Assembly: GCA_964594985.1 (NCBI GenBank)
Contig: CAZQNQ010000010.1
Coordinates: 71,466 to 135,465, forward strand
Reading direction: 5' to 3'
From: an uncultured Bifidobacterium sp.
Lineage (GTDB): Bacteria; Verrucomicrobiota; Verrucomicrobiia; Limisphaerales; JADLHS01
DNA: 64,000 nt
The position numbers were made by a program, and so were the translations under genes. Each line of letters opens with the position of its first letter. Position 1 is the first letter of the stretch. Shown here piece after piece: positions 32,089-48,043 of this stretch. The notes below the pieces were generated by a model. It ran no database searches. It was not told the DNA's origin and saw only the letters and a list, made by a program, of their open reading frames with translations.

Positions 32089-32139
32089 GAAAAAGCCCCG
32101 GCGCTAACCGGGGCTTTCGCGGATCGTGGTCGTTGCGGA

Positions 32140-33081
32140 TTATTTCATCCGGTCGAAATTCTTCTGGAGAATCTGCCAGTCCTTGAGGCCCTGCACTTTT
32201 TCCTGCATGGACTTGTGGATCTCGGCTTCCTTCGTGTTCTTCGTCGGCTTGGACTTCTTGAAGAAGATGCCGAAGCGGCCCGGGAACGGTTCGTCGGCCA
32301 GCTTGTAGGCGGCCATCTCGTCGGTCACGTCGTGGTCGGCGGGGACGAGGTTGAACACGCCGCCTTTGCGCGGGTTGCTCGCGTCGAACGCGCCTTCGTA
32401 GAACTCGACGCATTCGCTCAGGCATTCGATGAAGCTGAAGCCGTCGTGATCCATCGCGGCTTCCATCATCTGGAGGACGTGATTCGGATTGGTGTGCGTG
32501 GTGCGGGCCACAAACGTCGCGCCCGCCGCGATCGCCTGCTTCATCGGGTTGATCGGATAATCCACCGCGCCCCATTGGTCGGTCTTGCTCTTGAACCCGA
32601 GCGGCGACGTGGGCGAGGTCTGTTTCTTCGTCAGGCCGTAAACCCAGTTGTCCATCACGCAATAGGTCATCTTGATGTTCTTGCGCGCGGTGTGATTGAA
32701 ATGATTGCCGCCGATGGAGAAGGCGTCGCCGTCGCCACCGAACACGAACACGTGCAGGTCCGGACGCGAGAGTGAAATGCCGCTCGCGAACGGCAGCGCG
32801 CGGCCATGGATAAAGTGCGCGCCGTGGGCTTGCACGAAATACGGGAAGCGGCTCGAGCAACCGATGCCCGCGACCGTGGTGATCTTTTCGTGATGCATCT
32901 TGCGCTTCTCGATCAGCTTGAAATAAAGCGCGAGTACGGAGAAATCGCCGCAACCGGGGCACCATGTCGGGTGATCGGCAGCGACTTCTTTCTTCGTCAG
33001 GCCCTTGCGCTCTTCGGGCGTAGGGACGCGAGGGGTCAAAACAGCGGGACTCGTGGGAGCTTCGGTAAGTATCTGGCTCAT
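32140..33081 (-). CDS. korB: 2-oxoglutarate/2-oxoacid:ferredoxin oxidoreductase beta subunit
   Basis: TPP-binding WCPGCGDFSVL and GGDGDAFSIGGNH. Confidence 0.88.
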   Translation of the reverse strand: MSQILTEAPTSPAVLTPRVPTPEERKGLTKKEVAADHPTWCPGCGDFSVLALYFKLIEKRKMHHEKITTVAGIGCSSRFPYFVQAHGAHFIHGRALPFASGISLSRPDLHVFVFGGDGDAFSIGGNHFNHTARKNIKMTYCVMDNWVYGLTKKQTSPTSPLGFKSKTDQWGAVDYPINPMKQAIAAGATFVARTTHTNPNHVLQMMEAAMDHDGFSFIECLSECVEFYEGAFDASNPRKGGVFNLVPADHDVTDEMAAYKLADEPFPGRFGIFFKKSKPTKNTKEAEIHKSMQEKVQGLKDWQILQKNFDRMK

Positions 33082-33099
33082 ATTAAAAAGTGGTTGAAA

Positions 33100-34923
33100 T
33101 TATTGTTTGCGCAGACCTTCGGAGACGTTGGTCTTCACGCGTTCGAGGATTTCTTTGACCTTGAACGTAAGGCCGTCGGTCTTGTTGATGCCGCGGATCT
33201 TTGGATCGCAATAACGGGAGCGGAGCAAGCCGCCAAGCTGGCCGAAACCATAGAGGCCTTCGTCGTTCATCTCGACCACGAGGATATGGTTGAAGCCGGA
33301 GAAAATGTTTTCCAAGTCCGGCGGCAACGGGTTCAGGTGCTTGATGTGAATTGAGGACACGCTGTCGCCGGCGGCGCGGGCGCGGTCCACGGCTTCCTTG
33401 ATCGGACCTTGGGTCGAACCCCAGCCGACGAGGAGAACATTGCCTTCGCTCGGGCCGTAAATCTTCGGCGTGGGCAACGTCGCCCCGAGCGCCTGCAGTT
33501 TCTTGCGGCGCTTCGCCATCATCTGCATGTGCAACTTCGGCGAGCCGGTCGGATGACCGAGTTCGTCGTGCTCGAGACCGGTGACAATCGGATATTTACC
33601 GCTCTGAATCCATGTGCCCGGCGGAACGTGCTGCGTGATGCCATCCTTGGCGGAGAGATCGTAAGGCTTGTGATCGGCGACGGGTTTGAAATCGGGGGAA
33701 ATGTCCTGGCAAACTTTTTCGAGATTCGGCTCGGTGAAGGCTTCGATGCGGGTGGCGATGCCTTGGTCGGTGAGAAGAATTACGGGAACGCTGTATTTCT
33801 TCGCAATGTTGACGGCTTCAATCGCGGAGTAAAAACAATCTTCCACGTCCGCCGGCGCAATCACCACGCGCGGAGAATCGCCGTGACCGCCGAAGCAGGC
33901 GATGTTCAAGTCGGACTGCTCGATGTTCGTCGGCATACCCGTCGAAGGTCCACCGCGTTGCACGTCCACAATGACGAGCGGCATTTCCGCCATCACCGCC
34001 CAACCGAGCGCTTCGGTCTTGAGCGAGATGCCCGGACCGCTGGAGCCGGTGACCGCCACGCGACCGGCGTAGCTGCCGCCGATGGCCATCGAGATGGCCG
34101 CGATTTCGTCCTCAGTCTGCATGAACGTGCCGCCATATTTGGGCAGTTCGCGCCGCAATAATTCCATGATGTCGGACCACGGGGTGATCGGGTAACCTGC
34201 GCCGAAACGCACGCCCGCCGCGATGAGGCCGTAGCCGAGCGCTTCATTGCCGTTCATCACGATTTGATGCCCGCCCTTGCTCTGGCTATCAACAAACTTG
34301 AAGGTTTCCAGCACGTTGCCAAGCGAGTGCCCATAACCCGCGTGGAAAGCCGAGAGCGCGTTTTTGACGATGCTCTGATCTTTGCCGGTGAAGCGTTCGG
34401 TGATCAATCTTTCCAGCTTCGGCAGGTCGAGCGCGAACATCTTGGCGATCAGTCCAAGGGCATAGATGTTTTTGCCTTTATCCTTGGCCGTGCCGCCGAT
34501 GGCTTCGACCGTCAGACCGGAAATCGGGATGCCCAGATGATGGTAATCCTTCTGCCACTCAGGCTTCGCTTCGACATGGTCGGAATCATAGAGCACAATG
34601 CCGCCCTTCTTGAGCGAGTTGATGTGGCCTTCGTAGGAATGCTGATAGAACGCCAGCAAGACGTCGGCTTCATCACCGGAACTGAGGACTTCGCCCGAAC
34701 CGATGCGAACCTGGAAGATGGACGGCCCGCCGGAAATCGTGGCCGGAATCGTCATGAACGTCATGACTTCCTGTTCGCTGCGGCCGGCGAGGCGGGCGAG
34801 GAAACCACCGATGGCCTGGATGCCGTCCTGGGAATTGCCGGCGATGCGGATGACGGCCTCGGAAATCTGGGCGACTTTCGGCGCTCCACCCGCGTTTGCG
34901 GCTGCTACTGTTGAATCACTCAT
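33100..34923 (-). CDS. korA: 2-oxoglutarate/2-oxoacid:ferredoxin oxidoreductase alpha subunit
   Basis: 607 aa with GNEALGYGLIAAGVRFGAGYPITP and SGPGISLKTE. Immediately upstream of korB. Confidence 0.88.
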   Translation of the reverse strand: MSDSTVAAANAGGAPKVAQISEAVIRIAGNSQDGIQAIGGFLARLAGRSEQEVMTFMTIPATISGGPSIFQVRIGSGEVLSSGDEADVLLAFYQHSYEGHINSLKKGGIVLYDSDHVEAKPEWQKDYHHLGIPISGLTVEAIGGTAKDKGKNIYALGLIAKMFALDLPKLERLITERFTGKDQSIVKNALSAFHAGYGHSLGNVLETFKFVDSQSKGGHQIVMNGNEALGYGLIAAGVRFGAGYPITPWSDIMELLRRELPKYGGTFMQTEDEIAAISMAIGGSYAGRVAVTGSSGPGISLKTEALGWAVMAEMPLVIVDVQRGGPSTGMPTNIEQSDLNIACFGGHGDSPRVVIAPADVEDCFYSAIEAVNIAKKYSVPVILLTDQGIATRIEAFTEPNLEKVCQDISPDFKPVADHKPYDLSAKDGITQHVPPGTWIQSGKYPIVTGLEHDELGHPTGSPKLHMQMMAKRRKKLQALGATLPTPKIYGPSEGNVLLVGWGSTQGPIKEAVDRARAAGDSVSSIHIKHLNPLPPDLENIFSGFNHILVVEMNDEGLYGFGQLGGLLRSRYCDPKIRGINKTDGLTFKVKEILERVKTNVSEGLRKQ

Positions 34924-35236
34924 GAAAACTTTCTATTCAAAATGCGCGTCACGTTTCGAGGGGACAACTCGACCGCTTTGCGCGACACACTGTGCTTTCT
35001 CACAGTACCAAGCGACGGGATAGAGTCAATTTCTTCTCCGTCATATCTCGGTTGTTCAGGGCCAATCCATGACTGCCACGCATGGAAATGTCAGGTTTCA
35101 GCCAGAAAAGTAAGCAGGCGTGATTCAGGCGACAGCAGGGATAAAACGACTTAATCAAAGCTCCGAGCGCGGGTGGCTGGAAATTCCGGCGGAAACTATA
35201 CTTGTCCCATCATGCTGAAACTTCAAAATCGCCTTC

Positions 35237-35989
35237 GTGCATGATCAACCTGAACCAGTCTCAAGCAGTTCTCCCGAGCCGCTTGATACGCATGACGGTG
35301 GATTGCTCACCCGGCTGAGACGACGATGGCGGGCTTTCTCTCAAGCCAGTGCGACCGAAATCTTCTCGGAAATGCTCGTGCGCTCTTTGGTTGGGTTGGT
35401 TTTGGGCGGCATTGCCTGCGTAGCCTTGATTCCAATCGTCTTCTGGCCCAGCAAGCGAAATCCCCAGCCCATGTTCAACGAAATGAGCGACGCAACTTGG
35501 GCCATGTGGCTGTTTGCCGGAATGCTGCTTTTACCCGCCATCATTGGGGCTTTAAGCACGTTTCTAGGTGATCTCAAAGCCGGCTTCAAGGCCGCGCTCG
35601 GCATGAAGAAGCGCCGGGCAAGATATGAGATCGCTGATGGGGTCATCCTGATTGATGAAGCTGAACCTCCCGCCAGTTGGCTGCGCCGCATCCTCGGCGC
35701 GATGGGCAATGCGTTGGCGTGGATAGTTGTTTGCGCGCCCGGACTAATCTTCATGCTGGCCGGATTCAGCGCCGTAATCAACGAACGCATCACCGCTGGC
35801 AGGATGCAGCGCACTTCTTATGGCATCACTGCGGTCGGTTTCGGGTGGATTGAAGTCGCTTTGGGAGTCTGGTTCTTGGCGGAGGGTTTTCATCTCAAAA
35901 CCGACCGGCCCATCTATCGCTGGATTGGATGGGTTTTGGCTGGAGCGTGTCTGGTCAAAGGGATTTCCGTCCTGATTTCCGGGAAATAA
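35237..35989 (+). CDS. Integral membrane hypothetical protein
   Basis: 250-aa GTG-start ORF with about 6 hydrophobic segments. No family recognised. Confidence 0.55.
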   Translation: MHDQPEPVSSSSPEPLDTHDGGLLTRLRRRWRAFSQASATEIFSEMLVRSLVGLVLGGIACVALIPIVFWPSKRNPQPMFNEMSDATWAMWLFAGMLLLPAIIGALSTFLGDLKAGFKAALGMKKRRARYEIADGVILIDEAEPPASWLRRILGAMGNALAWIVVCAPGLIFMLAGFSAVINERITAGRMQRTSYGITAVGFGWIEVALGVWFLAEGFHLKTDRPIYRWIGWVLAGACLVKGISVLISGK

Positions 35990-35996
35990 GTCCGCA

Positions 35997-36767
35997 TCAG
36001 GCAAAGAAGCGCTCCAGCCCCTCCGCGACGCCGTGCCCGCAATGCAACTCACTCACAAAGCCGCCCTGCTTCTTCACCGCTTCTTTCGTCAGCGAAATCG
36101 CATTGGCTGGCGCAACGAGATAGCGCGCAAATTCCGTCTTCAACATCGGCAAGTCGTTCAGATGATCGCCCGCCGCCAAAACTTCTTCGCTCGTCAGCTT
36201 GAGCATCCGTGTCAGTTCCGCCAGCGCCGTGCCTTTGTTGTAATTCACATGGCTGAAGCGCGCATAGACATCGTTGCGCACCACGGTCAGTTCCGGGAAG
36301 CGGCGGCAAAACTCGTCGAGTCGCGCGTGGATTACGTCCGCATCGCCGTTGTTTCCCGCGATCAAACAAAACGGCGACCACGAGTCCTCGTAAACCGTTG
36401 CCTTGAACCGCTCATTAACCCAATCCATCAACGCGGAAACCTCTGGGCGCACCCGCGCAAACAGCACCTCGTGATCGCGATGACACGCCGTGTTCCAATG
36501 CTCCACCGGCGCGTAACGCCCGCCGTCGTGCTGATAAATCTCGCGCTCCACCAGGACCAGATAATCCGGCTGCACCGTGATCCGCGCCCGGGCCAGGGCT
36601 TCCATCAAGCTGGACATGTCGCGCCCGGTGTTGATGACCCATTTCACGCCCCGCGCCTGCAAATCGCTGATGAGCGACACAAAGCGCGGCGGGATCGGCG
36701 GGTTCTCGAACTCCGCGAACAGCGTCCCATCGAAGTCCGTTGAAACTAATTTGATTGGCAAACTCAT
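35997..36767 (-). CDS. HAD-superfamily (Cof/IIB-like) hydrolase
   Basis: Start at MSLPIKLVSTDFDGTLF (DxDxT motif), then NTGR and a distal GDHLNDLPM. Confidence 0.8.
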   Translation of the reverse strand: MSLPIKLVSTDFDGTLFAEFENPPIPPRFVSLISDLQARGVKWVINTGRDMSSLMEALARARITVQPDYLVLVEREIYQHDGGRYAPVEHWNTACHRDHEVLFARVRPEVSALMDWVNERFKATVYEDSWSPFCLIAGNNGDADVIHARLDEFCRRFPELTVVRNDVYARFSHVNYNKGTALAELTRMLKLTSEEVLAAGDHLNDLPMLKTEFARYLVAPANAISLTKEAVKKQGGFVSELHCGHGVAEGLERFFA

Positions 36768-36804
36768 CGTCGTGCGGTGCAGTATATCGGGGCCAGACAA
36801 CGCA

Positions 36805-37272
36805 ATGCAAAGTTTGATGAGCGCACCGCAGGAACAATACGACGACGCCATGTTCGCCTTCAGCCAGGGTGATTACGACGGGTGCATCGAGAAACTGCGC
36901 CCCATCCTCGCGAGCGATCCGACGCATTTCGACGCGCAACTCTCCCTTGGCATGGCGTTCTATCGCAAAGGCGATTTCGCCACCGCCATCGCCGAAGGCC
37001 ACAAAGCTGAGCAACTGCGCCCCAAGGAACAGCTTGTTCACACGAACCTGTCGTTGTTCTACATGAAGTCCGGCGACAAACAAACCGCCGAACATCACGG
37101 CCTGCAAGCGCGCATCGCCTCGTGGCGCGAGGACAAATCCAAACCCGGCGAAACTCCCGCCACCGCGTCCGACCCCGAACTGGCGTTCGTGAAACCACCC
37201 ACACCGCCGCCCCTCAAGCCGCCGGAGAAATTCCCCGACATGCCGTGGAAGAAGAAAAAAGTTGATGGTTGA
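36805..37272 (+). CDS. TPR repeat protein
   Basis: Start at MQSLMSAPQEQYDDAMFAFSQGDYDGCIEKL. Three TPR-like units and a Pro-rich tail. Confidence 0.7.
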   Translation: MQSLMSAPQEQYDDAMFAFSQGDYDGCIEKLRPILASDPTHFDAQLSLGMAFYRKGDFATAIAEGHKAEQLRPKEQLVHTNLSLFYMKSGDKQTAEHHGLQARIASWREDKSKPGETPATASDPELAFVKPPTPPPLKPPEKFPDMPWKKKKVDG

Positions 37273-37304
37273 ACTTTGAAACACATCGAAATATGCATTG
37301 TTTG

Positions 37305-37379
37305 GGTAGGGCGCGTCACTCCGTGCGCGCCGTCGTCTGGCTGGCCCAATACGGCGCGCACGGAGTGACGCGCCCTACC
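37305..37379. repeat. Family A inner hairpin, copy 3 (inverted loop, no outer arms)
   Basis: 28-bp arms at 37305-37332 and 37352-37379, identical to copies 1 and 2. The loop TCGTCTGGCTGGC is the reverse complement of the copy-2 loop. Confidence 0.85.
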
Positions 37380-37432
37380 AGCCAAAGGCAAAGCCGTCAT
37401 TTAATTAAGGTTCTCAACAGAAGCTAACGAAT

Positions 37433-37723
37433 ATGAAATCCTCCTACGAACTCGCGATGGAACGCCTGAACAAAACCGCGCCCGTCGCCAAACTGACCGC
37501 TGAACAAAAGAAGGAAATCGCCGAACTCGAATCCAAGGCCAAAGCCAAAACTGCCGAACGCGAAATCGCCTTGAAAGAGGCGACGGCCGCCGCGTCTGAG
37601 GCGGGCGACTACGAGAAAGTGGAGCAACTTCAACAGCAGCTCATCAAAGAACGCAAAGCCATTCAGGCGGACTTGGAGGAGAAGAAAGACCGCATCCACC
37701 AGGCGTCAAAAGGGCGTCGATAA
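37433..37723 (+). CDS. Small coiled-coil hypothetical protein
   Basis: 96 aa, Lys/Glu-rich heptad-like sequence. Its last ~100 nt are repeated at 40655-40756. Confidence 0.65.
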   Translation: MKSSYELAMERLNKTAPVAKLTAEQKKEIAELESKAKAKTAEREIALKEATAAASEAGDYEKVEQLQQQLIKERKAIQADLEEKKDRIHQASKGRR

Positions 37724-37731
37724 AATGCCGT

Positions 37732-39129
37732 ATGATTTCCATTTCACAACTTCAAGAGTGGGTGCGAACGGGTGAGTCTGAGACGCTGGAATTCAAGCGC
37801 ACAACCGGCGAACGCCGCGCTGGCACACAGACACTTTGTGGGATGCTCAATCATCGTGGGGGACGGGTGCTCTTTGGCGTTGAGCCGGATGGCCGCATCA
37901 TCGGCCAAATGGTTTCGGATCATACGGTCGAAGAAGTAGCGCAAGAGTTAAAGGAAATTGACCCGCCAGTCTTTCCTTCCATCGAGCGGGTAGATGTAAC
38001 TGAGGGGCGGCAGGTGTTGGTGGTAACCGTTTCAGCAGGAACAAACCGCCCCTACAACTACAAAGGACAGGCATACCGACGCGTGGGGAACACAACTCCA
38101 GAACTCTCGGGCCACGGTTTTCAACAGATGTTGTTGGAGCGATTGCATGGCGAGAGGCGTTGGGAGAATGAGCCTGCGGAAGGGTGGGCGGTGACCGATT
38201 TGGAAGCTTCCGAAATCATTCGGACCCTGGAAGAATCCATCCGGCGCGGTCGAGCGGATGACCCCGGCGTGCGCGATCCCGCAGAGGTGTTGCGTGGTTT
38301 AGGATTGATGCGGGGCGGACAATTGTTGCGGGCTGCGGTGGTTTTGTTCGGAAAAGCCGAACAACTGGAACCGCGGATGCCGCAGTGTTTGTTGCGTGTG
38401 GCACGCTTTCGTGGTCGAGATAAGACCGAGTTCCTTGATAACCGGCAGTTTCACGGCAACGCGTTTGATCTCTTGCTGCGGGCGGAGCGATTTTTACGGG
38501 AAAATCTGCCGGTCGCAGGTCGCATCCAACCAGGCTTGTTCGAGCGTGTGGACGATCCGCTCTATCCGCCAGTGGCGTTGCGGGAGACGCTGGCCAATGC
38601 GGTTTGCCATCGAGATTACAGTATTGGCGGCGGTTCAATTGCCGTGGCACTTTTCGATGATCGGCTGGAGATCACTTCGTCGGGCACGCTTCACTTCGGA
38701 TTAACAACAGAAGCACTGTTCCAACCTCACGAGTCGCTGCCATGGAATCCGCTCATCGCACGGGTGTTTTATCGGCGCGGCGTAATCGAAGCATGGGGCC
38801 GGGGCACCATCAAGATCGCGGAGTTAGTTGCGAGAGCCGGACTGCCTCAACCTGAAATTGAAGAGGCGGGCGGCTGTGTGGTGGTGCGGTTTCGTCCCAG
38901 TCGTTATGTTGCACCATCGCGGGTCGCTCAAGATGTGACTGAGCGCCAACGACGAGTTCTTGAAGTCTTGGCGGCCGGGGCCAGCGGCGGGATAGCGCTC
39001 CGGGAAATTGCGGCTCAGTTGACCAATCATACGCCACGGGCACTTCGGGAAGACCTGAGTGTTTTGCAGACTTTGGGTTTAGCAAAAACAACAGGTTGGG
39101 GCGCTGGTGCAAAGTGGAAACTTCGGTAG
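37732..39129 (+). CDS. AlbA_2 (Schlafen-like) DNA-binding domain / HATPase_c_4 / wHTH protein (often annotated 'RecG-like' or 'ATP-binding protein')
   Basis: N-terminal GESETLEFKRT...LCGMLNHRGGRVLFGVEPDG (AlbA_2), central REtLANAVCHRDY-type motif (LRETLANAVCHRDYSIGGGSIAV) and a C-terminal wHTH-like RQRRVLEVLAAG...LREIAAQL. Confidence 0.8.
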   Translation: MISISQLQEWVRTGESETLEFKRTTGERRAGTQTLCGMLNHRGGRVLFGVEPDGRIIGQMVSDHTVEEVAQELKEIDPPVFPSIERVDVTEGRQVLVVTVSAGTNRPYNYKGQAYRRVGNTTPELSGHGFQQMLLERLHGERRWENEPAEGWAVTDLEASEIIRTLEESIRRGRADDPGVRDPAEVLRGLGLMRGGQLLRAAVVLFGKAEQLEPRMPQCLLRVARFRGRDKTEFLDNRQFHGNAFDLLLRAERFLRENLPVAGRIQPGLFERVDDPLYPPVALRETLANAVCHRDYSIGGGSIAVALFDDRLEITSSGTLHFGLTTEALFQPHESLPWNPLIARVFYRRGVIEAWGRGTIKIAELVARAGLPQPEIEEAGGCVVVRFRPSRYVAPSRVAQDVTERQRRVLEVLAAGASGGIALREIAAQLTNHTPRALREDLSVLQTLGLAKTTGWGAGAKWKLR

Positions 39130-39138
39130 AACGGGCTT

Positions 39139-39180
39139 ATTCCGGCTCATTCCGGCTCATTCCGGCTCATTCCGGCTCAT
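39139..39180. repeat. Tandem 10-bp repeat (ATTCCGGCTC x 4.2)
   Basis: Perfect tandem copies between and overlapping the 3' ends of the two convergent genes. The GH28 stop codon lies inside it. Confidence 0.9.
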
Positions 39181-40603
39181 GATGCTTAATTCGCTCGTTT
39201 GTTTCCCGCACATTCTCTACGTTCCGCAGGCTGTTCGTCCGGCTGTGCGCTTGGTTGACCGTGATATTTTCAAGAAAGACGTCGCGCACGGGTAGCTTCG
39301 CATCGCCCGCGATTTTGATGGGCGTGTCGGTTTCTTCGACTTGAATGTTTTTGAGGTGAATGCCCCGGATGGGCGTGAGCTTTTCCTCGTAGGTCGGCAC
39401 GAGGTCGCGCCATTGGTAGAGCACGTCGGTATCAATACCCAGCACGCCAAACTTCGTGCTCTTGGCGGCGATGTTCTCGACATGGATGTTCTCCACGAAA
39501 CCGCCGCGCCGCCGGTTGGTCTTGATGAAGACGATGTTTTGCGGTGGGTTCGAGTCAGCGTTGTCGAACCGGCAGTCATGCACATACACATTACGGATGC
39601 CGCCGGAAAGTTCGCTGCCGATGGCGACCAGTTGATGCCCGCGCACCATCGTGCAGTTGCGGACGACAATGTTCTCCGAAGGCGTGTTCAACCGCCGCCC
39701 GTCGAAATCCATCCCAGCCTTGATGGCGATGGCATCGTCGCCCTGATCAAACCGGCAATCTTCCACGAGCAGATTGCGCGTCATCTCCGGATCAATGCCG
39801 TCGTTGTTGCGATTGCGCGCCACGATGTCCACGCGCCGGACCACGACGTCTTCGCTCAACAACAGGTGAATCGTCCAGAACGGGCTGTTGCGGATCTTCA
39901 CGTCTTCGATGAGCACATTCCGGCAGCGATTGAACTGGATGAACTGCGGACGCAGATGATTTTCCCCGACCGCCATCTGACGCTGCGCGACCGGCGCATT
40001 CGTATAAGCAAAGTGATAAAGCCGCTTCAACGCTTCCAGATGCGCGGGGGGCCGGGTGAACCACTGTTTCCAAACGTCCAATCGCGCCTCAATCATGCCC
40101 TGGCCCGTGAGCGCGACATTCGTGCAGCCAAACGCATAAATCAGCGGTGAATAGTTGAAGCACTCCGTCCCCTCCCAACTCGATTGCACGGCGGGCAAGT
40201 AATCCTCTGGCCTGGCGCTGAAGTAGAGCGTCGCGCCCTCAGCGAGGTGAAGGTTGACGTTGCTTTGCAGATGAACTTTTCCCGTCAGCCATTTGCCGCG
40301 CGGAATCACGACTTTGCCGCCGCCCGCCGCGTGACAGGCCGTGATAGCTTTGTGGATGGCTTCAGAGATGTTTGTATTCCCGCCTTCCACCGCGCCGAAA
40401 TCCGTGACGACAAAATCACGGTCGGGAAACACCGGGATTTTGATTGCCGGCATGGTGAACGGCGCGGCCACGAAAATCTCCTGATGCCGGATGCCGTTGG
40501 TTTCGGCCCGCACAAAATTTGCCGCCAAAAACAGCGCGAACAACGCGCCAAGCAGCATGGCAAATGACTTGGTCATCAAAGATAAAGTGACTGGCTTTGC
40601 CAT
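39167..40603 (-). CDS. Glycoside hydrolase family 28 (polygalacturonase-like, parallel beta-helix)
   Basis: Start at MAKPVTLSLMTKSFAMLLGALFALFLAANFVRA (signal peptide). GH28-like NRNNDGIDP, FDQGDDAIAIK and RGHQLVAIGSE motifs. Confidence 0.85.
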   Translation of the reverse strand: MAKPVTLSLMTKSFAMLLGALFALFLAANFVRAETNGIRHQEIFVAAPFTMPAIKIPVFPDRDFVVTDFGAVEGGNTNISEAIHKAITACHAAGGGKVVIPRGKWLTGKVHLQSNVNLHLAEGATLYFSARPEDYLPAVQSSWEGTECFNYSPLIYAFGCTNVALTGQGMIEARLDVWKQWFTRPPAHLEALKRLYHFAYTNAPVAQRQMAVGENHLRPQFIQFNRCRNVLIEDVKIRNSPFWTIHLLLSEDVVVRRVDIVARNRNNDGIDPEMTRNLLVEDCRFDQGDDAIAIKAGMDFDGRRLNTPSENIVVRNCTMVRGHQLVAIGSELSGGIRNVYVHDCRFDNADSNPPQNIVFIKTNRRRGGFVENIHVENIAAKSTKFGVLGIDTDVLYQWRDLVPTYEEKLTPIRGIHLKNIQVEETDTPIKIAGDAKLPVRDVFLENITVNQAHSRTNSLRNVENVRETNERIKHHEPE

Positions 40604-40642
40604 TTGAGGCCACTTCCCAAACTGGTGATAATACGGTCGTCC

Positions 40643-40777
40643 GTAGCCGCCGAAGCGGGCGACTTCGAGAAAGTGGAACAGCTCAAGGAACAACTCATCA
40701 AGGAACGCAAAGAAATTCAGGCTGACTTGGAGGAGAAGAAGGACCGCATCCATCAGAAGTCAGCTCGTTCATCTTGA
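40643..40777 (+). pseudogene. Orphan 3' fragment homologous to the end of the 37433..37723 gene
   Basis: Translates in frame to ..AAEAGDFEKVEQLKEQLIKERKEIQADLEEKKDRIHQKSARSS*, compared with ..AASEAGDYEKVEQLQQQLIKERKAIQADLEEKKDRIHQASKGRR*. No plausible start. An in-frame stop lies at 40583. Confidence 0.7.
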
Positions 40778-40823
40778 TCAGAAATAGGAACCCCTGCTCG
40801 TGTGCGCAACAAAGGTGTGGGGA

Positions 40824-41090
40824 CTATTTGATGTCCCACACCAAATCTGCGACTTCGACGTTAAGCGCTCTGGCAATTTTGAGCAGCGAGCCAACGGAAA
40901 TTTCCATGGTGCCGCGCTCGACCGCACCGATGAAGTTATGGTGCAGGTCGGCTTTCTCCGCCAATTTTTCCTGAGTCAACCCAACTTTTTTGCGATGGGA
41001 ACGGATCGTTTCACCCAAAATTCGGCGGTGATTTGGCCTCGTTGACACAAATGTTAGCAAGCGCAGACCAACACACCACGCTCCACACAT
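40824..41090 (-). CDS. XRE-family helix-turn-helix transcriptional regulator
   Basis: LGETIRSHRKKVGLTQEKLAEKADLHHNFIGAVERGTMEISVGSLLKIARAL is a canonical HTH_3. Divergent from the 41196 gene. The true start may be the GTG near 41048. Confidence 0.8.
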   Translation of the reverse strand: MCGAWCVGLRLLTFVSTRPNHRRILGETIRSHRKKVGLTQEKLAEKADLHHNFIGAVERGTMEISVGSLLKIARALNVEVADLVWDIK

Positions 41091-41195
41091 TAAACTGTGT
41101 TTTTACTTGCAGACGCTTGGCAAAATGATAGAACAAATCTGTTCATAACAAACCAAACCCGGGTTGTTTTAACGGGGAAATCAAACTGAAATATC

Positions 41196-43919
41196 ATGAA
41201 AATCTTGCGCCAAAAGCTGATTGTCGTGCTTGCGTCACTACTGTTCATTGTCGCGTCAAGTCAGGCCATTGAAGGACTGAAATTACAAATCATTTGTCCC
41301 GATGTTGTGTTGTCGTGGCCGAGTGTGGAGGGGGCAACTTACATTGTTCAGTATCGGCCCACGCTGGATCCGATTACGCCGTGGCAAACGCTGACCAACA
41401 ATCTGCCCGCAGGGACGGGAACGAACGTGACATTTTTTGTCCACTCGAACCGGGTTGATTGCTCGGCGGGGCAGATTTTTGGCATGGGGCTTTTGCCAGA
41501 TGGCGGCAACGCAATGGTTTCATCAGCCGCATCGTTGTCTCCGGAAGAAAGAAGGCAGCTCAAACAGGCCCGGGAGACGCAACGCCTGGCTGAACTATTG
41601 GTGCAGTGCGAATTAGAGCAACGCGAGCCATACGAATGGGAGTTGAAGAATGAACCGCCACCACCGCCATCAACTGAAGAAGTTCGAGCCAAAATCCTCG
41701 CTGCGATGGAAAAGAGACAGGCTGGCTTGAACACCGCTGGCAGCGTCGGTTTGGCACCGCAATTTTCTTCTGCGGCAATCAACAGCGCCAACAGTTGCGC
41801 CTCGTATGTTGCCAGCAACAACAATTCCGGGTTTTACCGTGTATTCTGTCCTGCACCCGTTGCTCAACTTGATGTGTTTGGCGTCGAGCAAGGTTCAACC
41901 ATGAATCAGCTCGATATTTTGCTCAATGATACGGACCCGGATGACAATCCAATTATGCTGTCCCACGTTCAACCGGCAGGTCACGGGGAAATAGAATATA
42001 GCGACGATGCCAGCATCTTTCGCTACACGCCGACAAATACTTTCTCGGGCTTGGAGACTTTTTCGTACGCCATCACGAACGATGTGGGGGGATCAAACAC
42101 GGCCACAGTATTTGTGTTTGTCAACGCAGCGGGAAACAACCAGCCGTACACCCTGCCGTTAGAACTGACATTGCAGACAAATCAAACGGCAATTTCCTTC
42201 CCCATCCTGACCAACGCGGCAGACCCGGACAACGATGCGCTTCAACTTGTCGTCATTGCGCCACCCACCTACGGAACGGTCACGACCAACACCAACAGTG
42301 AACTCGTTTATTCGTGTACGTCGTACTACGTTGCTCAGGATTCGTTCTTCTATGTTTTGACCGACGGACGCGGCGGATTTGTAAAACAACCCGTCATCAT
42401 CAATCCGCAGGACGATGACGGAGATGAAATTCCCGATGAATGGGAGTTGCAGCACGACCTTGACCCGACTCTAAACGATGCGGCGGATGATCCTGATGAA
42501 GACGGGTTGCCGAACCTCGCCGAATACAAGCTGGATACCTGCCCTTGGTCTTCTGACAGCCCGCTCAACTTGAGCCACATTGCCATCAATCAACCTTTCC
42601 GCGAATTTGCGCTCATTCCAGTGCCGCTCAAAAGCCACATCAAAAAGCCCGCTCTTTCCATGTTGCTCAATGGCAGCCGCGCCAACGGGTCACTGGTGAA
42701 ACGGGCCGACGGATGTTGGTATCTCAACTGGGACACCGGCTATCTGGCTAATGGCCCATACTCCCTTGCGCTGGAATTGGAGTACCGCGCTGACCCGCAG
42801 CCGGGAGATTTGCCGGTGGTGGGAGCAACCGTGCCAGTCATCGTGACCAATGATGTGACCTTTAGCCAATTAGCCTCCACTTTCAGTGATTTCCTTGTGA
42901 TTGACGTGAAGCTCGCCTTGCAAAGCGCTGACTGGCGGATTGAGTTCTTTGACGAAGCAAACCAATACCTTGGCTATTTTTACGGCACAACATCGGATGG
43001 CACAATTCAAGGCGCATGGGATTTGACTGACGGCCAAAACCAGATTGCCTTCAGTCATGTCCGGACGGATTTTTATTTTGCTCCACATCAGGAAATTTCG
43101 CTCTTGGATGATGCCCCTCCGGGTGGTAATCAAAGGAAAGCCCGGCGTTGGTTCATCAAACAAATCCCCGGCGGAATCGGAAACACTTTCGTGGTCGCTT
43201 GGGGGTGGGATGCTTACACCACCAGCTTTAACAACAACCGCACCAGACTAATGCTCAATGGCGTCATTAACATTCTCGCCAATCCGGCTCGAGACGATGA
43301 GTATTTTCTGCGGCCTGGGGCCAACTTATTTGATGGCAATGCGTTTCGCTATGATGATGATTTGGACAAGGAAACATTACTTTCGGCTTTGAAAGCCAGC
43401 GATAGTGGCAATTTCTTTTGGTTTGGACATGGCGATGTTGATGTGCTGCAAGGAGATCACAAGCGTTCATCAATCCCTCCTGACCTTGTAGAAAACACGT
43501 TGCAAAACAAGAGACACCGCTCAACAAAAAGAGTTCCTGCCGTGGACAAGCACCCGTATCGCTTGGTCATTCTGAATGCTTGCAAAATGTATCATCCGAA
43601 TTGGGCTCATGCGTTTGGGATTGATTATTCGACAAATGGAACTACCAGCGATGTTTATGCCTATTACCAGCATGGACGGCAATCACAGGCGTTTGTTGCT
43701 TGGACAAATAACATTCAGGTGCCAAAGCTTGGCAATTTTAACTACCGTAGCGATGAATATGCAGTCGGGCTAGCGGCGCTATTTTCTCGATGGATGGATG
43801 GTTATGCTTTGGAAAACTGTCTTGGTTGGTATGAATACTACATGGACAATTACAATTTTAGCGGTCATGACTCTTGGAAAATATCCGGCACGGCTTACAT
43901 GTGGCGGACGGCTCCATGA
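41196..43919 (+). CDS. Large secreted protein: cadherin-like/VCBS-like repeats, TSP3-like Ca-binding motifs and a C-terminal caspase/CHAT-like (clan CD) candidate peptidase domain
   Basis: Signal peptide MKILRQKLIVVLASLLFIVASSQA. Repeats DTDPDDNPIML..YTPTNTFSGLETFSYAITNDVGG and ADPDNDALQLV..YSCTSYYVAQDSFFYVLTDGRGG. TSP3-like DDDGDEIPDEWE and DPDEDGLPNLAEY. FFWFGHGD (His745) and LVILNACK (Cys796) lie 51 residues apart. Confidence 0.75.
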   Translation: MKILRQKLIVVLASLLFIVASSQAIEGLKLQIICPDVVLSWPSVEGATYIVQYRPTLDPITPWQTLTNNLPAGTGTNVTFFVHSNRVDCSAGQIFGMGLLPDGGNAMVSSAASLSPEERRQLKQARETQRLAELLVQCELEQREPYEWELKNEPPPPPSTEEVRAKILAAMEKRQAGLNTAGSVGLAPQFSSAAINSANSCASYVASNNNSGFYRVFCPAPVAQLDVFGVEQGSTMNQLDILLNDTDPDDNPIMLSHVQPAGHGEIEYSDDASIFRYTPTNTFSGLETFSYAITNDVGGSNTATVFVFVNAAGNNQPYTLPLELTLQTNQTAISFPILTNAADPDNDALQLVVIAPPTYGTVTTNTNSELVYSCTSYYVAQDSFFYVLTDGRGGFVKQPVIINPQDDDGDEIPDEWELQHDLDPTLNDAADDPDEDGLPNLAEYKLDTCPWSSDSPLNLSHIAINQPFREFALIPVPLKSHIKKPALSMLLNGSRANGSLVKRADGCWYLNWDTGYLANGPYSLALELEYRADPQPGDLPVVGATVPVIVTNDVTFSQLASTFSDFLVIDVKLALQSADWRIEFFDEANQYLGYFYGTTSDGTIQGAWDLTDGQNQIAFSHVRTDFYFAPHQEISLLDDAPPGGNQRKARRWFIKQIPGGIGNTFVVAWGWDAYTTSFNNNRTRLMLNGVINILANPARDDEYFLRPGANLFDGNAFRYDDDLDKETLLSALKASDSGNFFWFGHGDVDVLQGDHKRSSIPPDLVENTLQNKRHRSTKRVPAVDKHPYRLVILNACKMYHPNWAHAFGIDYSTNGTTSDVYAYYQHGRQSQAFVAWTNNIQVPKLGNFNYRSDEYAVGLAALFSRWMDGYALENCLGWYEYYMDNYNFSGHDSWKISGTAYMWRTAP

Positions 43920-43932
43920 AGAAAGGCTGTTA

Positions 43933-44280
43933 ATGCAAACTAAAAACACGCCACCAGACGCAACTGAGGTTTTGATCAAAAAGAAACGGCACGGCCAACA
44001 ACTGACGACCTCCGCGCTTTGCCTTGCGGTTGTTTTCTTTTTGAGCTTCTCGCCCTATGCCCCAACAACGCGGAACTTGATCTGGTATGAAATACAATGC
44101 TGGGGGCTTGTTGCCGTGCCGCTGGTTCTGTCTAGTTTTGCATTCATCCACTTGTTGCCTGTGCTGGTGCGCGGGGTAGGGACGCAACGAATATCGGCGG
44201 TTATTTTGCTGATCGTGTCAGGTTACTATGCCTATCAAGGTTGGGAGGAAATCATCTTTCACTATATGATCAACCCCTAA
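43933..44280 (+). CDS. Small integral membrane protein (3 TM), unknown family
   Basis: Start at MQTKNTPPD, 14 nt after the upstream stop. Three hydrophobic segments. AT-richer codon usage like its neighbours. Confidence 0.55.
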   Translation: MQTKNTPPDATEVLIKKKRHGQQLTTSALCLAVVFFLSFSPYAPTTRNLIWYEIQCWGLVAVPLVLSSFAFIHLLPVLVRGVGTQRISAVILLIVSGYYAYQGWEEIIFHYMINP

Positions 44281-44302
44281 AATTTCAGACGCCTCTATTA
44301 CA

Positions 44303-44644
44303 TTGATGAAAACGGAGGATTCAACCCAAGAAACCCGCCAGTCGGCGAATGATGCGAATATCACCCGGGTGGTGTTCACCGTAATTTTGCTGTTGTCCCT
44401 GTTCATCATCGCCAAGTCGTTCATTGCGACTCACAATGTGACTCAGTGGAGCGATGAGATTCAGATGATGTTCATCCGTGAGCAAACCGAAGCCGGGAAG
44501 CGGGGCTATTCAATTACAGAATACCTCACCCGGCTGGATGACATCCAGAAACAGTGGAAAGTCATGCGTCATGTCAGCGTTGGCTTGGCGGCGCTATCAG
44601 CCGTTGGGGTCTTTTTGGCGGGCAAACGCAGGAACAAACAATAG
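44303..44644 (+). CDS. Small bitopic membrane protein (2 TM flanking a ~55-aa loop), unknown family
   Basis: 113 aa with TM1 VVFTVILLLSLFIIAKSFI and TM2 VSVGLAALSAVGVFLAG. Confidence 0.55.
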   Translation: MMKTEDSTQETRQSANDANITRVVFTVILLLSLFIIAKSFIATHNVTQWSDEIQMMFIREQTEAGKRGYSITEYLTRLDDIQKQWKVMRHVSVGLAALSAVGVFLAGKRRNKQ

Positions 44645-44657
44645 TCGCAAGGCATTC

Positions 44658-45476
44658 ATGGACATCCTCTACATTTCACTTGCCTACAAATACGTGATGC
44701 TGGCGTTGATGCTGGCGGAGGTGAATCACGCGGGCGGCAAACTCGAAATTCCCAACTGGCAGCCGATTACTTTCGCGCAAGTCGAGACCTACAACATTTC
44801 GCCGCCACGAATGCGCGCGGGCGGCAGTCTGGATACCACCAATGGAGTTTTTGGCTTTGGTGAAAATAAATTGCAATTCATACAGTGGCCGGAGCCGAAT
44901 TCGGACTTGCCGCTGAGGGAGCGGCAGATGCGCTGGTCAAAGTTGGAATCCCTTGTTGACACCAACGGAGCCTATCAACTGGCGACCAACTGGTTGACGA
45001 GATTGGAAGTGGATGTGTCCGCTTTGGAGAAAAAGCATCCGGTGTCCGTGTTGCAACAATTCTTTTATCCCGGCGGGGACGTCAACCAGCAACGGATTTT
45101 ACTGCCACGCTTTGAAGTGCGTTGGGGTAAAAATCCATCTCTGCCTGCGATTTGGGTTTCCATTTATGGGCCAACCAAAACGCCGCTTTTCATCCGGCAG
45201 GAGGACGGTTCGTTCATTCGGCGTCCCGAAGTGGTAAAGCCGGAAGCCATTGCGACACTGCTTTCAATCACCAACGCTACGTTTGCCGGATGGACCATGA
45301 CTCAAAAATCCAATCTCGTCGTGCAGTCCGCTGGCAATGGGTATCCGACGCTGGTGTTTCCCGAAGTGATTTCTGAGGGAAAGACGCCAAAACAATCCAC
45401 GCTGCTTATGAAGCCCAAGCCGCCTGTCGTCCCCGCCAAAAAGACTAGGATTTTGCCAGCGGCAAACCGGGAGTAA
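44658..45476 (+). CDS. Hypothetical protein, unknown family
   Basis: Start at MDILYISLAYKYVMLALMLAE (N-terminal hydrophobic anchor or signal). 272 aa. Last gene of the AT-richer cluster. Confidence 0.55.
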   Translation: MDILYISLAYKYVMLALMLAEVNHAGGKLEIPNWQPITFAQVETYNISPPRMRAGGSLDTTNGVFGFGENKLQFIQWPEPNSDLPLRERQMRWSKLESLVDTNGAYQLATNWLTRLEVDVSALEKKHPVSVLQQFFYPGGDVNQQRILLPRFEVRWGKNPSLPAIWVSIYGPTKTPLFIRQEDGSFIRRPEVVKPEAIATLLSITNATFAGWTMTQKSNLVVQSAGNGYPTLVFPEVISEGKTPKQSTLLMKPKPPVVPAKKTRILPAANRE

Positions 45477-45591
45477 GTCGCGCTAGGTACAGCCTTCTCA
45501 AACGGCCCGGGGCCAATCTATGACGGCGCGCCTCACCGTTCTGCAAGCAAATCCTTCGTGCCTTCCGCCGGTTCTCGACTATGCTGCGCTC

Positions 45592-46044
45592 ATGTTCGAC
45601 GACTTGAACGACCTTTATCAGCAGGTCATTCTCGACCACTGCAAGAAGCCGCGCAATTTCCACGAGATGCCGCAGGCCAGTTGTTCCGCGCAGGGCCACA
45701 ACCCGCTCTGCGGCGATCAACTCAAACTCTTTCTCGCCCTCGACGGCGACACGATCAAGGACATCAGCTTCGTCGGCTCGGGTTGTTGCATCTCGAAGGC
45801 GTCGGCGTCGTTGCTGACGGAATTTGCCAAGGGCAAGACCAAGGCCGACGTGGAAAAGATGTTTGGTGAGGTGCGCGAGATGGTCACCACCGGAAAGATG
45901 GCCGAGGACGTCGGCAAGCTCGCGGTCTTCGCGGGCGTTTACAAATATCCGGCCCGCGTGAAGTGCGCCATCCTCGCGTGGCACGCCGTGATGGGCGCGT
46001 TGAAAGGTGACGCCAAACCGGTGACGACCGAGTCCGAGCAGTGA
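45592..46044 (+). CDS. sufU: SufU/IscU-like Fe-S cluster assembly scaffold
   Basis: Three Cys ligand motifs: NPLCGD, GSGCCISKASAS and ARVKCAILAW. Confidence 0.85.
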   Translation: MFDDLNDLYQQVILDHCKKPRNFHEMPQASCSAQGHNPLCGDQLKLFLALDGDTIKDISFVGSGCCISKASASLLTEFAKGKTKADVEKMFGEVREMVTTGKMAEDVGKLAVFAGVYKYPARVKCAILAWHAVMGALKGDAKPVTTESEQ

Positions 46045-46060
46045 CGGGCAACGGCGCGGT

Positions 46061-46261
46061 TTACCGGCGGCCCACGTAGATCAATCCCACCCCCACCGTT
46101 ATCAGCACGGCTCCGCCGACATACAGCCAGGTGATGCGATTGTGGGTGGACGAGCTGAACATCTGGTGCCATTGGCCGTGGAAAGTCCGCGATTCACGAT
46201 AGCCCCACACCAGTGCCGTGGTGCCCGCCACCAGACAAAGGATGGCAAACGTCTTCTTCAT
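46061..46261 (-). CDS. DUF3185-like small membrane protein
   Basis: 66 aa with two TM segments (FAILCLVAGTTALVWG and WLYVGGAVLITVGVGLIYVG). Confidence 0.6.
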   Translation of the reverse strand: MKKTFAILCLVAGTTALVWGYRESRTFHGQWHQMFSSSTHNRITWLYVGGAVLITVGVGLIYVGRR

Positions 46262-46264
46262 GCT

Positions 46265-46447
46265 TCAATCTTCCGCTTCGGTTGCATCCTCCGCGCCGCC
46301 GAACTCCGGACAGCAGGAGCAGGAAGTTCCATAACAATCCGCACACAGTTTCTTTTCGCCAAAATCATAGGCGCCGTAACGCCCGCATTTGTCGCACGTA
46401 CGCTGCGGATCGGGTTTGATTTCCGTATTCAGGTCCATTCCGGCCAC
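46265..46447 (-). CDS. Small Cys-rich (zinc-ribbon-like) protein
   Basis: 60 aa with CDKCGRYGAYDFGEKKLCADCYGTSCSCCPEF. Confidence 0.5.
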   Translation of the reverse strand: MAGMDLNTEIKPDPQRTCDKCGRYGAYDFGEKKLCADCYGTSCSCCPEFGGAEDATEAED

Positions 46448-46456
46448 AGTTTGGCA

Positions 46457-47137
46457 TCAAACCTTGGGCTTGGCCAGTTGCATGGCGATGTACGCCCCGT
46501 GCAACAGCGCCAGGAAGATCAGGCCGAAGCCCGAGGCGCGCTCCATCCGCAACAGGGTCTTCTCGGTGAACTTTTTGTGCCCCAGGGAAATCGCCCAGCT
46601 CAACCCGATGAACCAGACCCCCACGCCCGCGGTCACGCCCACCAGACAGGCCAGTTTGCCTTCGCGATTCGGCTCGACCCAGCCGCGCGAGATGAAATTG
46701 GCGCCGAGAATGATCCAGCCCAGCAACACGCCGGGATTGGCCAGGGTGCGGACGAACCCCGTCATGAACGCGGAGTGCGGATGCAGTTTCGCTTCGATCT
46801 TCATCTCGATGCGTTGCTCCAGCTTTTCCACGACGGCGACGGTTTTCGCCATCGCGAAGCGCACGCCCAAAAACAGCAGGAAGGCGAAACTGAACACCTC
46901 CATGACCGACTTGATCGCGCCCTTCTGGAAAAAGGCCGCAAACCCGGTGAACGCGATGGCGCAATAGATGACTTCCATCACGGTCGCCCCGATGCCGATC
47001 AACGCGGCCCACTTGAACCCGCGCCGCGCGCCCTCGTTGATAATGGTCAGATTGACCGGCCCGACCGGGATGCACAACGCGAGACCCGCAATGAACCCGG
47101 TCAACGTCGCGATGAAGATAGGTGGCAACTCCGGCAT
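46457..47137 (-). CDS. LysE/RhtB family amino-acid exporter
   Basis: 226 aa, 6 TM. N-terminal FIATLTGFIAGLALCIPVGPVNL is typical of the LysE family. Confidence 0.75.
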   Translation of the reverse strand: MPELPPIFIATLTGFIAGLALCIPVGPVNLTIINEGARRGFKWAALIGIGATVMEVIYCAIAFTGFAAFFQKGAIKSVMEVFSFAFLLFLGVRFAMAKTVAVVEKLEQRIEMKIEAKLHPHSAFMTGFVRTLANPGVLLGWIILGANFISRGWVEPNREGKLACLVGVTAGVGVWFIGLSWAISLGHKKFTEKTLLRMERASGFGLIFLALLHGAYIAMQLAKPKV

Positions 47138-47143
47138 GATCCC

Positions 47144-48043
47144 TTAATCCGCCCGCTTCGGCGCTTCATCCTCGTCGTCATCTTCCTCGATGATGTCCCG
47201 GCGCGTCTGCCGCGAGAGCCGCGGCCGGATGAAGCCGTAAATCAGATACGCCGTGAAGAACAACGGCAGGATGAACATCAGAACCTTGCCCTTGGACACT
47301 ACAATCAAGCCCAGCAACAAGATCGCAATCAACATCCCGGGGAACGACCGCGTCGTGCGCAGGTTCAGCACCTTGAAGCTTGGATACTTCACCTGGCTCA
47401 CCATCATCCACGAGAGAAACAGCATCAGCACCGGCAACAGGTAGCGCCAACGGCTGTGGTTGAACTTTCCCTCCATCCACCCGTTTTCATTGAGCCAGAT
47501 CATCAAAAAGGTCAGTGAGGTGACCAGTGCCGCCGCCGAGGGAATGGGAAAACCGAGAAACTCCTTGCTGCCGCCCCCGGGCATGGCCGCCAGACAGTTG
47601 AACCGGGCCAGCCGAAACGCCCCGCAGACCAGATAAATGGACGCGATGAACCAGCCGATTTCCGCGTATTGTACAAAGACATCCTTGAGCACGATGCGAT
47701 GCACCAGAAACGCCGGGGCCGCGCCGAACGAAATCAAGTCCGCCAGCGAATCAAACTCCCGCCCGAACGGACTGTCCGCCCCGATCATCCGCGCCACGCG
47801 TCCGTCAAACAGATCGAACACACAGGCGGCGAGAATGAAAGCCATCGCGATCTTGATGTCGGTGAAGTTGCCCGAGCCGATATCCGCCTCGACAATCTTC
47901 GTCAGCGCCACGAAGCCGCAAAAAAGATTTCCCGCTGTCAGCAGGTTCGGCAGGAAATAAATCTTCAGCTTCGGCTCGGGGGCGTCGCCGTTGGTAGTGG
48001 TGGTATTGTCAGCCATGTGGTCACTCAACCCGGATTCGCGCAA
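47144..48043 (-). CDS. pssA: CDP-diacylglycerol--serine O-phosphatidyltransferase
   Basis: CDP-alcohol phosphatidyltransferase motif DGRVARMIGADSPFGREFDSLADLISFG. The start may be the Met at 48016. Confidence 0.85.
   Translation of the reverse strand: MRESGLSDHMADNTTTTNGDAPEPKLKIYFLPNLLTAGNLFCGFVALTKIVEADIGSGNFTDIKIAMAFILAACVFDLFDGRVARMIGADSPFGREFDSLADLISFGAAPAFLVHRIVLKDVFVQYAEIGWFIASIYLVCGAFRLARFNCLAAMPGGGSKEFLGFPIPSAAALVTSLTFLMIWLNENGWMEGKFNHSRWRYLLPVLMLFLSWMMVSQVKYPSFKVLNLRTTRSFPGMLIAILLLGLIVVSKGKVLMFILPLFFTAYLIYGFIRPRLSRQTRRDIIEEDDDEDEAPKRAD

Follow-up and report, generated by a model that had tools for sequence, protein, structure and literature searches.

The repeated gene end and its setting

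We examined a window of 64,000 nucleotides (positions 71,466 to 135,465 of contig CAZQNQ010000010.1, assembly GCA_964594985.1; all coordinates below are positions in this window) from an uncultured bacterium that GTDB places in the Limisphaerales, an order of the Verrucomicrobiota, and in which the 3′ end of a small gene occurs twice in direct orientation. The gene, small96, encodes a 96-aa coiled-coil protein. The complete gene ends in one copy of the repeat (copy A, 37601-37702), and a second copy (orphan copy B, 40655-40777) lies downstream, beyond two genes with Pfam matches to SLFN_AlbA_2 plus HATPase_c_4 and to Glyco_hydro_28 (GH28), and directly before a cassette that begins with an XRE-type regulator and reaches almost to sufU. 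The features of the locus are as follows; G, L and X numbers denote the relatives described below, and ORF stands for open reading frame.

36790-37272, plus strand: TPR-repeat gene, the conserved left flank, with matches to Pfam TPR families; syntenic in G017, G023, L078 and L080
37433-37723, plus strand: small96, the complete 96-aa coiled-coil gene; 40 of 41 genomes sampled in the order have a single homologue
37729-39180, plus strand: AlbA_2/HATPase_c_4 module, made up of the gene at 37732-39129 and a 10-bp tandem repeat at 39139-39180
39167-40603, minus strand: GH28 glycoside hydrolase (Pfam and NCBIfam), convergent to the AlbA_2 gene
40604-40653, no strand: spacer upstream of GH28, kept in an X6 contig that lacks the cassette; unlike small96 beyond 8-11 nt
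40654-45547, plus strand: indel unit of 4,894 bp, comprising the orphan gene end and the XRE/Big_9 cassette
40655-40777, plus strand: orphan copy B, the final 41 codon positions (40 sense codons and a stop) of another small96 allele
40824-41090, minus strand: XRE-type helix-turn-helix regulator (Pfam HTH_3), the first gene of the cassette
41196-45476, plus strand: Big_9/cadherin-like 907-aa protein, small ORFs and a 272-aa partner, together a recurrent cassette
45545-45591, no strand: right junction (AAGC at 45545-45548) and conserved boundary upstream of sufU; homology of the relatives resumes at 45541-45555
45592-46044, plus strand: sufU, the conserved right flank (TIGR01994 SufU; 95-97% aa identity to G017)

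In an in-register alignment, 37601-37702 and 40655-40756 differ at exactly 15 of 102 positions (85.3% identity), and the longest identical stretch is 18 nt. The reading frame is kept throughout: 12 codons differ, 8 of them synonymously and 4 by replacement (Y/F, Q/K, Q/E and A/E), leaving 30 identical residues among the 34 shared codons, after which the two copies run into different tails (ASKGRR* and KSARSS*), each with its own stop. We found no homologous 5′ part at copy B, as the 50 nt to its left resemble small96 alleles about as much as shuffled sequence does (p ~0.35); the 57-aa ORF with a TTG start that spans it (40604-40777) comes only from a mechanical ORF list. A search of the whole 5.24-Mb assembly found the 102-bp sequence at these two places only (E = 1e-27 for the second copy). 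These results bear out most of what the first-pass annotation, made from the letters alone, had described: about 15 mismatches counted by hand, in frame and mostly synonymous or conservative; two peptides with different tails and stops; a distal copy that is an orphan, with a search for the 102 bp elsewhere in the genome as a check; a convergent AlbA_2/HATPase_c_4 and GH28 pair between the repeats (37732-39129 on the plus strand and 39167-40603 on the minus strand by Pfam); and the lack of an integrase. Indeed, Pfam detected neither an integrase nor a transposase domain in the ORFs of 37.7-45.5 kb, three of which match no family at all. Independent Logan contigs from two runs cover 39151-46500 with 0 differences, and contig depth is even over the entire locus. 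Thus, the arrangement is genuine and no assembly artefact.

We found exactly one match to small96 in 40 of 41 sampled genomes of the order, and only the genome studied here has a second, partial copy; small96 is a conserved single-copy core gene of this verrucomicrobial order. It matches no Pfam or NCBIfam family, and one source names its close homologues Verrucomicrobiota. Among 62 of these homologues (P0001-P0062), each of two N-terminal types (NKTAPVAK and EKASPTAK) is found with each of two C-terminal types (QLKEQL and QLQQQL), making all 4 possible combinations, a four-gamete signal that shows recombination inside the 291-bp gene and marks small96 itself as a frequent crossover site. Copy A is slightly less similar to the relative L078 in the 3′ part of the gene (86%) than in the 5′ part (91%), and we considered that it might be a chimera; alleles with the same combination of ends are known from empty sites (e.g., L126/P0003), so that this comparison decides nothing either way.

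Copy B has the marks of a functional allele. Over their 34 shared codons, copies A and B give a dN/dS of 0.05, compared to 0.02-0.08 for pairs of functional orthologues; copy B is free of indels and internal stops and shows only ~3 private nucleotide changes in 102 nt, from which we infer that it was captured recently, before neutral decay became visible. It is closest to the L080 allele (92%, dS 0.38), compared to 85% identity to copy A and 83% to G017, and it carries derived Q-to-K/E states (a 'KE' signature) and an S-R-S type tail, both common in functional alleles. By these comparisons, copy B is the last 40 sense codons and the stop of a working allele from another lineage, and not a decayed duplicate; its identification as a displaced or foreign gene end is supported. 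We also looked for a third remnant of the small96 end, and BLAST detected none before 45555.

Accessory genes between small96 and sufU

In the nearest species representative (G017), another representative (G023) and a metagenome contig (L126), the gap between small96 and sufU is empty, and the gene order is korB, korA, HAD, TPR, small96, sufU. Homology between G017 and the window resumes at 45555, one base past the small96 stop, so that relative to this empty site the genome studied here holds an extra 7.85 kb (37703-45554). In two other relatives the same gap holds different genes, namely zinc-ADH, Fer4/SCP2, adh_short, a MarR-like gene and GH28 in L078, and an RND pump, MFP, adh_short, Pyr_redox_2 and MarR in L080. 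The right boundary falls at 45541-45555 in each comparison (G017, G023, L078, L080 and L126), and altogether we saw three empty sites, three assembled filled sites and one partial one (X6). No recombinase was detected by Pfam in the fillings of this genome, L078 or L080. Since the same core flanks enclose differing cargo or none in close relatives, the gap from the small96 stop to the region upstream of sufU is an accessory-gene hotspot in this subclade. Linkage of small96 to sufU is restricted to the subclade, being found in just 2 of 23 other genomes in the genus.

The fillings of L078 and L080 themselves share an older core, consisting of the MarR-like gene adjoining sufU and 41 nt downstream of the small96 stop; a 162-aa gene of L078 without a Pfam match (13690-14178) has 82% DNA identity to the MarR gene of L080 (16457-16939).

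To find which part of the filling varies among the closest relatives, we compared contigs from public sequencing runs over 36000-46500. The contigs of X6, a run from a different study, are 96.7-97.6% identical to this genome and cover part of the AlbA_2 gene, parts of GH28 and sufU, and none of them lies in 40654-45476. Specifically, one X6 contig reads 40486-40653 and then continues directly at 45548, skipping 4,894 bp. Independently, in L078 the GH28 gene directly adjoins the sufU boundary and the unit 40654-45547 is absent. The skipped unit starts where the distal repeat starts and ends at the common right boundary, and it contains the orphan end (40655-40777), a 46-nt linker and the cassette of XRE gene, Big_9 gene, small ORFs and 272-aa partner; its GC content is 0.46-0.54, compared to 0.587 for the window. 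The unit that varies among close relatives is the orphan with the cassette, not the segment with AlbA_2 and GH28.

Other families of the order, and metagenomes, carry the cassette gene set as a unit in unrelated surroundings (G047, G054, G020 and L082-L086), and in G020 the homology ends at the stop codon of the XRE gene. In L129 (G013:C127), an XRE homologue (77% nucleotide identity) adjoins a homologue of the 272-aa partner (74% aa identity) with no Big_9 gene between them, which looks like a truncated cassette. In two distant families (G054:C11 and G140:C7), a Big_9 cassette lies ~9 kb and ~25 kb from small96 on the same contig without adjoining it, which may be chance or a loose regional preference.

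The two genes bracketed by the repeats have distinct histories. The GH28 gene has 89% nucleotide and 90% aa identity to that of L078, where it has the identical orientation beside sufU and is present without an AlbA_2 gene and without a second small96 end. Its identity equals that of the core flanks (87-90% to L078), and together with the synteny this indicates that GH28 has long been established in the hotspot. Among 23 genomes of the genus, none has an orthologue of the AlbA_2 gene (best match 32%), and the gene recurs in 39 metagenome loci at up to 87% protein identity, 0 of which have small96, GH28 or sufU. Its nucleotide homology begins at its own start codon (37729-37732), not at the repeat, and in L087 and L088, which are unrelated contexts, extends to 39180, through the 10-bp tandem repeat. 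These separate distributions indicate that AlbA_2 and GH28 came separately and, to judge by them, are not one element.

Several observations concern these two genes themselves. The tandem repeat at 39139-39180 is perfect, with ~4 copies of the unit ATTCCGGCTC, and is part of the AlbA_2 module; in L089 a longer array of this unit follows the AlbA_2 homologue. The 6 codons at the end of GH28 (...HHEPE, within 39167-39192) are the antisense strand of the ATTCCGGCTC repeat, and homology of GH28 to L078, which has ~12 different terminal codons, ends at 39192. Since the GH28 C-terminus is encoded by the repeat of the AlbA_2 module, the AlbA_2 insertion seems to have replaced the native one. The GH28 protein is nearest to the model of the Bacteroides BT4155-type alpha-D-galacturonidase (649 bits; cut-off 800), which suggests a hydrolase of rhamnogalacturonan-II or pectin side chains. 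PADLOC models of defence systems gave only weak partial matches for AlbA_2, viral contigs held no relatives of AlbA_2 or of the 272-aa partner, and a promoter and terminator scan of 37.3-41.3 kb returned counts equal to those of shuffled sequence.

We noted two further peculiarities of the left flank. Between korA and HAD, ~0.9 kb (35126-36012) with an ORF for a 250-aa membrane protein (35237-35989; weakly matching DUF7144 and DUF6338) is missing from G017, L078 and L080, where the gap is ~60-250 bp, and represents a small insertion of its own. The spacer that separates the TPR gene from small96 measures 160 bp here compared to ~43 bp in G017 and holds a short repeat (37301-37386) that reaches ~50x the local contig depth in runs X1 and X4; its many variant copies and an opposite-strand joint (37338/37386) mark it as a dispersed palindromic repeat family.

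Origin of the second gene end

The two ends of the skipped unit differ in kind. At the left junction the spacer reads GCCGCCGAAGC (40646-40656), after which X6 continues with AAATCC and this genome continues with small96 sequence. Alleles of the L080 type read GCTGCCGAAGC at the left joint and match GCCGCCGAAGC at 10 of 11 positions, so that the microhomology amounts to at least 4 nt (AAGC, also found at 45545-45548) and possibly to 8-11 nt (GCCGAAGC to GCCGCCGAAGC against L080-type alleles). Homology to small96 begins at the X6 joint, and the 50 nt to its left are not small96-like; inserted DNA with its edge at the joint would produce just this pattern, and if X6 had arisen by deletion the agreement would have to be put down to chance. 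The right junction lies at the point where the filled versions L078, L080 and X6 become homologous, and a CAAATCC motif (GCAAATCC in L078 and the window) just before this boundary is common to all three. We considered GCAAATCC as a possible remnant on account of its likeness to the stop region of the empty site, GAAAATAG, and judged it too short to serve as evidence of one. No tRNA was found at the locus, nor a terminal inverted repeat or a long identical core.

One homologous and one microhomology junction, with no recombinase or tRNA, form the pattern of homology-facilitated illegitimate recombination (HFIR). We think it probable that an HFIR-type join between two versions of the hotspot produced the locus and left the orphan as its scar. 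Under this reading, two alternative fillings would have been spliced in series, AlbA_2 with GH28 and then the XRE/Big_9 cassette. In its previous host the cassette would have lain directly behind that host's own small96, and the gap of 46 nt between the stop of copy B and the cassette suggests that in this parental version the cassette occupied the same hotspot, within 46 nt of its own small96 stop. The splice would be an illegitimate join at the short microhomology, connecting codon 57 of the other small96 allele to the spacer upstream of GH28; the second crossover would have taken place within a homologous flank common to both versions, as when linear DNA comes in by HFIR. The distal 102-bp repeat would then be a fragment of the flank of a different allele and a scar of the event, not the end of a mobile element. 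Both the HFIR-type mechanism and the donor version, in the order small96, cassette, sufU, are inferred from the junctions and alleles described above.

Either of two directions gives the identical product. The orphan and cassette could have come in with an anchor on the sufU side, into a genome of the AlbA_2/GH28 type, a direction that we put forward tentatively; the dissimilarity of copy B to G017 (83%), the foreign composition of the cassette, and the existence of an X6-type version with the same flanks all fit import of the cassette side. Alternatively, and in our view somewhat unlikely, a block from HAD through small96 and AlbA_2 to GH28 came in with a left-side anchor, into a cassette-bearing genome, and displaced the native gene end. 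Under this second direction alone, copy A may be the 'replacement end' that the first-pass annotation had proposed, and in that case homologous recombination, rather than site-specific integration, would have brought it in as part of the entire gene plus its left flank. In a four-taxon sliding-window analysis, the nearest neighbour of this genome is G017 at 32.1-34.2 and 45.6-47.7 kb but L078 at ~34.2-37.5 kb; this switch within 32090-47950 points to a recombination tract in or around the left flank of the hotspot. We considered this analysis as a means of deciding which side came in, and rejected it for that purpose because the mosaic is compatible with either direction.

Several points weigh against the reading as an HFIR-type join, or against the direction that we tentatively favour. 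The mosaic of the flanks fits import of the left block. The X6 joint is seen in one contig, at a depth of 2.6 and with 23 nt on its short side. No contiguous match to copy B plus the XRE gene was found by BLAST in 401 genomes of the order, and hence no parental version with small96, cassette and sufU; nor does it occur among the cassette loci of metagenomes, where the contexts of the closest Big_9 homologues contain neither small96 nor sufU. An exact-pattern scan of the genome contigs for the pre-insertion junction gave no match.

We considered that the 4.9-kb unit might be a self-contained mobile insert, in which the cassette left a former host imprecisely with 123 nt of the neighbouring gene, by one-ended transposition or aberrant excision, and duplicated 3-4 bp of its target (AGC or AAGC). 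The skipped segment does have AAGC at either end, and the cassette is low in GC and found in many unrelated contexts. The unit lacks a transposase or integrase by Pfam, however, its ends show no inverted similarity when read by eye, and viral contigs hold no related sequence. Moreover, its right end is the boundary where L078 and L080 become homologous, as expected of a homologous crossover and not of a random target. This origin thus seems to us improbable. We consider it very improbable that the tail of small96 and the motif GCAAATCC followed by TTCGTG are the two halves of a dedicated attachment site, at which a recombinase encoded elsewhere would load cassettes serially, in the manner of integrons or tycheposons, with the orphan as an internal relic of the site; if this were true, it would amount to a new site-specific cargo-stacking system in Verrucomicrobiota.

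The first-pass annotation had read the repeats as the footprint of an element inserted into the 3′ end of small96, that is, an integrative element of ~3 kb carrying AlbA_2 and GH28, which brought a replacement end, orphaned the native one, and has lost its integrase or was served in trans. Part of this stands: the site does receive horizontal insertions, the orphan is a displaced or foreign end, and the empty site that it had anticipated, with the TPR gene and small96 directly followed by sufU, exists in G017, G023 and L126. The in-frame direct repeats around two genes and the lower similarity of the 3′ part of copy A to L078 could also be taken in its favour. An element bracketed by attachment sites, in contrast, does not fit the evidence. 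There is neither recombinase nor tRNA, and no joint between 37601-37702 and 40655-40756 was seen at the level of contigs; the longest identical stretch of the repeats, which are 85% identical overall, is 18 nt, although a shared core could have diverged since an old event; GH28 is orthologous and syntenic in L078 without AlbA_2 or a second repeat, and AlbA_2 travels alone, with homology from its own start codon. Furthermore, the natural indel is the orphan with the cassette, the empty sites lack 37703-45554 as a whole and not the bracketed segment alone, and the combination of ends in copy A is found in empty sites. We therefore regard this origin as extremely improbable.

Finally, a local partial tandem duplication of small96, with loss of the 5′ part and later divergence of the second copy, would account for two direct-orientation copies 3 kb apart, but it is scarcely credible and is refuted as far as these data reach, because 0 of the 40 relatives with small96 have a second copy (the first-pass annotation had named an ancient duplication, with an intact second copy in relatives, as the case that would overturn its own view), the divergence is almost purely synonymous and free of indels and stops, unlike neutral decay, copy B shares its derived K and E states and tail type with alleles of other lineages, and it is missing together with the cassette in the X6 relative.

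Relation to known systems

HFIR is known from Streptococcus pneumoniae, Acinetobacter baylyi and Pseudomonas stutzeri, with microhomology of 3-10 bp being typical (PMC3240628). The locus resembles these cases in that one junction lies in DNA homologous between the partners and the other is illegitimate, at a short GC-rich microhomology (here 4 to 8-11 nt), and in that foreign DNA was added beside the anchor with no dedicated recombinase. It differs in that the event is deduced here from natural genomes, whereas the laboratory cases were observed experimentally, and in scale: the insert would be 4.9 kb (6 kb for the opposite direction) and hardly anything would have been deleted, compared to averages of ~1 kb inserted and ~1 kb deleted in laboratory events.

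HFIR has also been proposed for the orphaned 3′ ends in effector-immunity arrays of the Vibrio cholerae type VI secretion system and in Rhs loci (PMC5361080). There, as here, a conserved gene lies beside a variable region, modules recombine through the conserved part, and an orphan 3′ end remains downstream. However, small96 is no polymorphic toxin, the two ends are orthologous alleles (dN/dS 0.05) and not alternative toxin domains, and we find one orphan instead of an array, with no immunity-like partner gene.

Islands that tyrosine recombinases insert at the 3′ ends of tRNA, tmRNA or protein genes likewise leave a direct repeat of the gene end, with the intact gene on one side and the orphan on the other; here, in contrast, an integrase is absent, the repeats share only 85% identity and no long core, the genes between them do not form one unit, and the indel boundaries do not match the repeats. 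The locus shares with flexible genomic islands and islets a core gene pair that flanks different cargo or none, mosaic flanks, and a flanking gene that recombines internally. It departs from them in that two cargoes would have been stacked by an illegitimate join, instead of one replacing the other.

On our best reading, the locus is an island hotspot that bears an HFIR-type scar; the process is known, and this example of it, although clear, is ordinary and raises no new question. Natural events of this kind, homologous on one side and illegitimate on the other, are uncommonly legible at single-nucleotide resolution outside model organisms; here, close relatives preserve the state before the event, and decay of the captured flank has yet to set in. 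A practical warning follows, namely that a direct repeat of a gene end alone is insufficient evidence for an integrative element. For these uncultured Verrucomicrobiota of soil and groundwater, the HFIR-type reading would mean that accessory cassettes can stack at a core-gene junction without an integrase.

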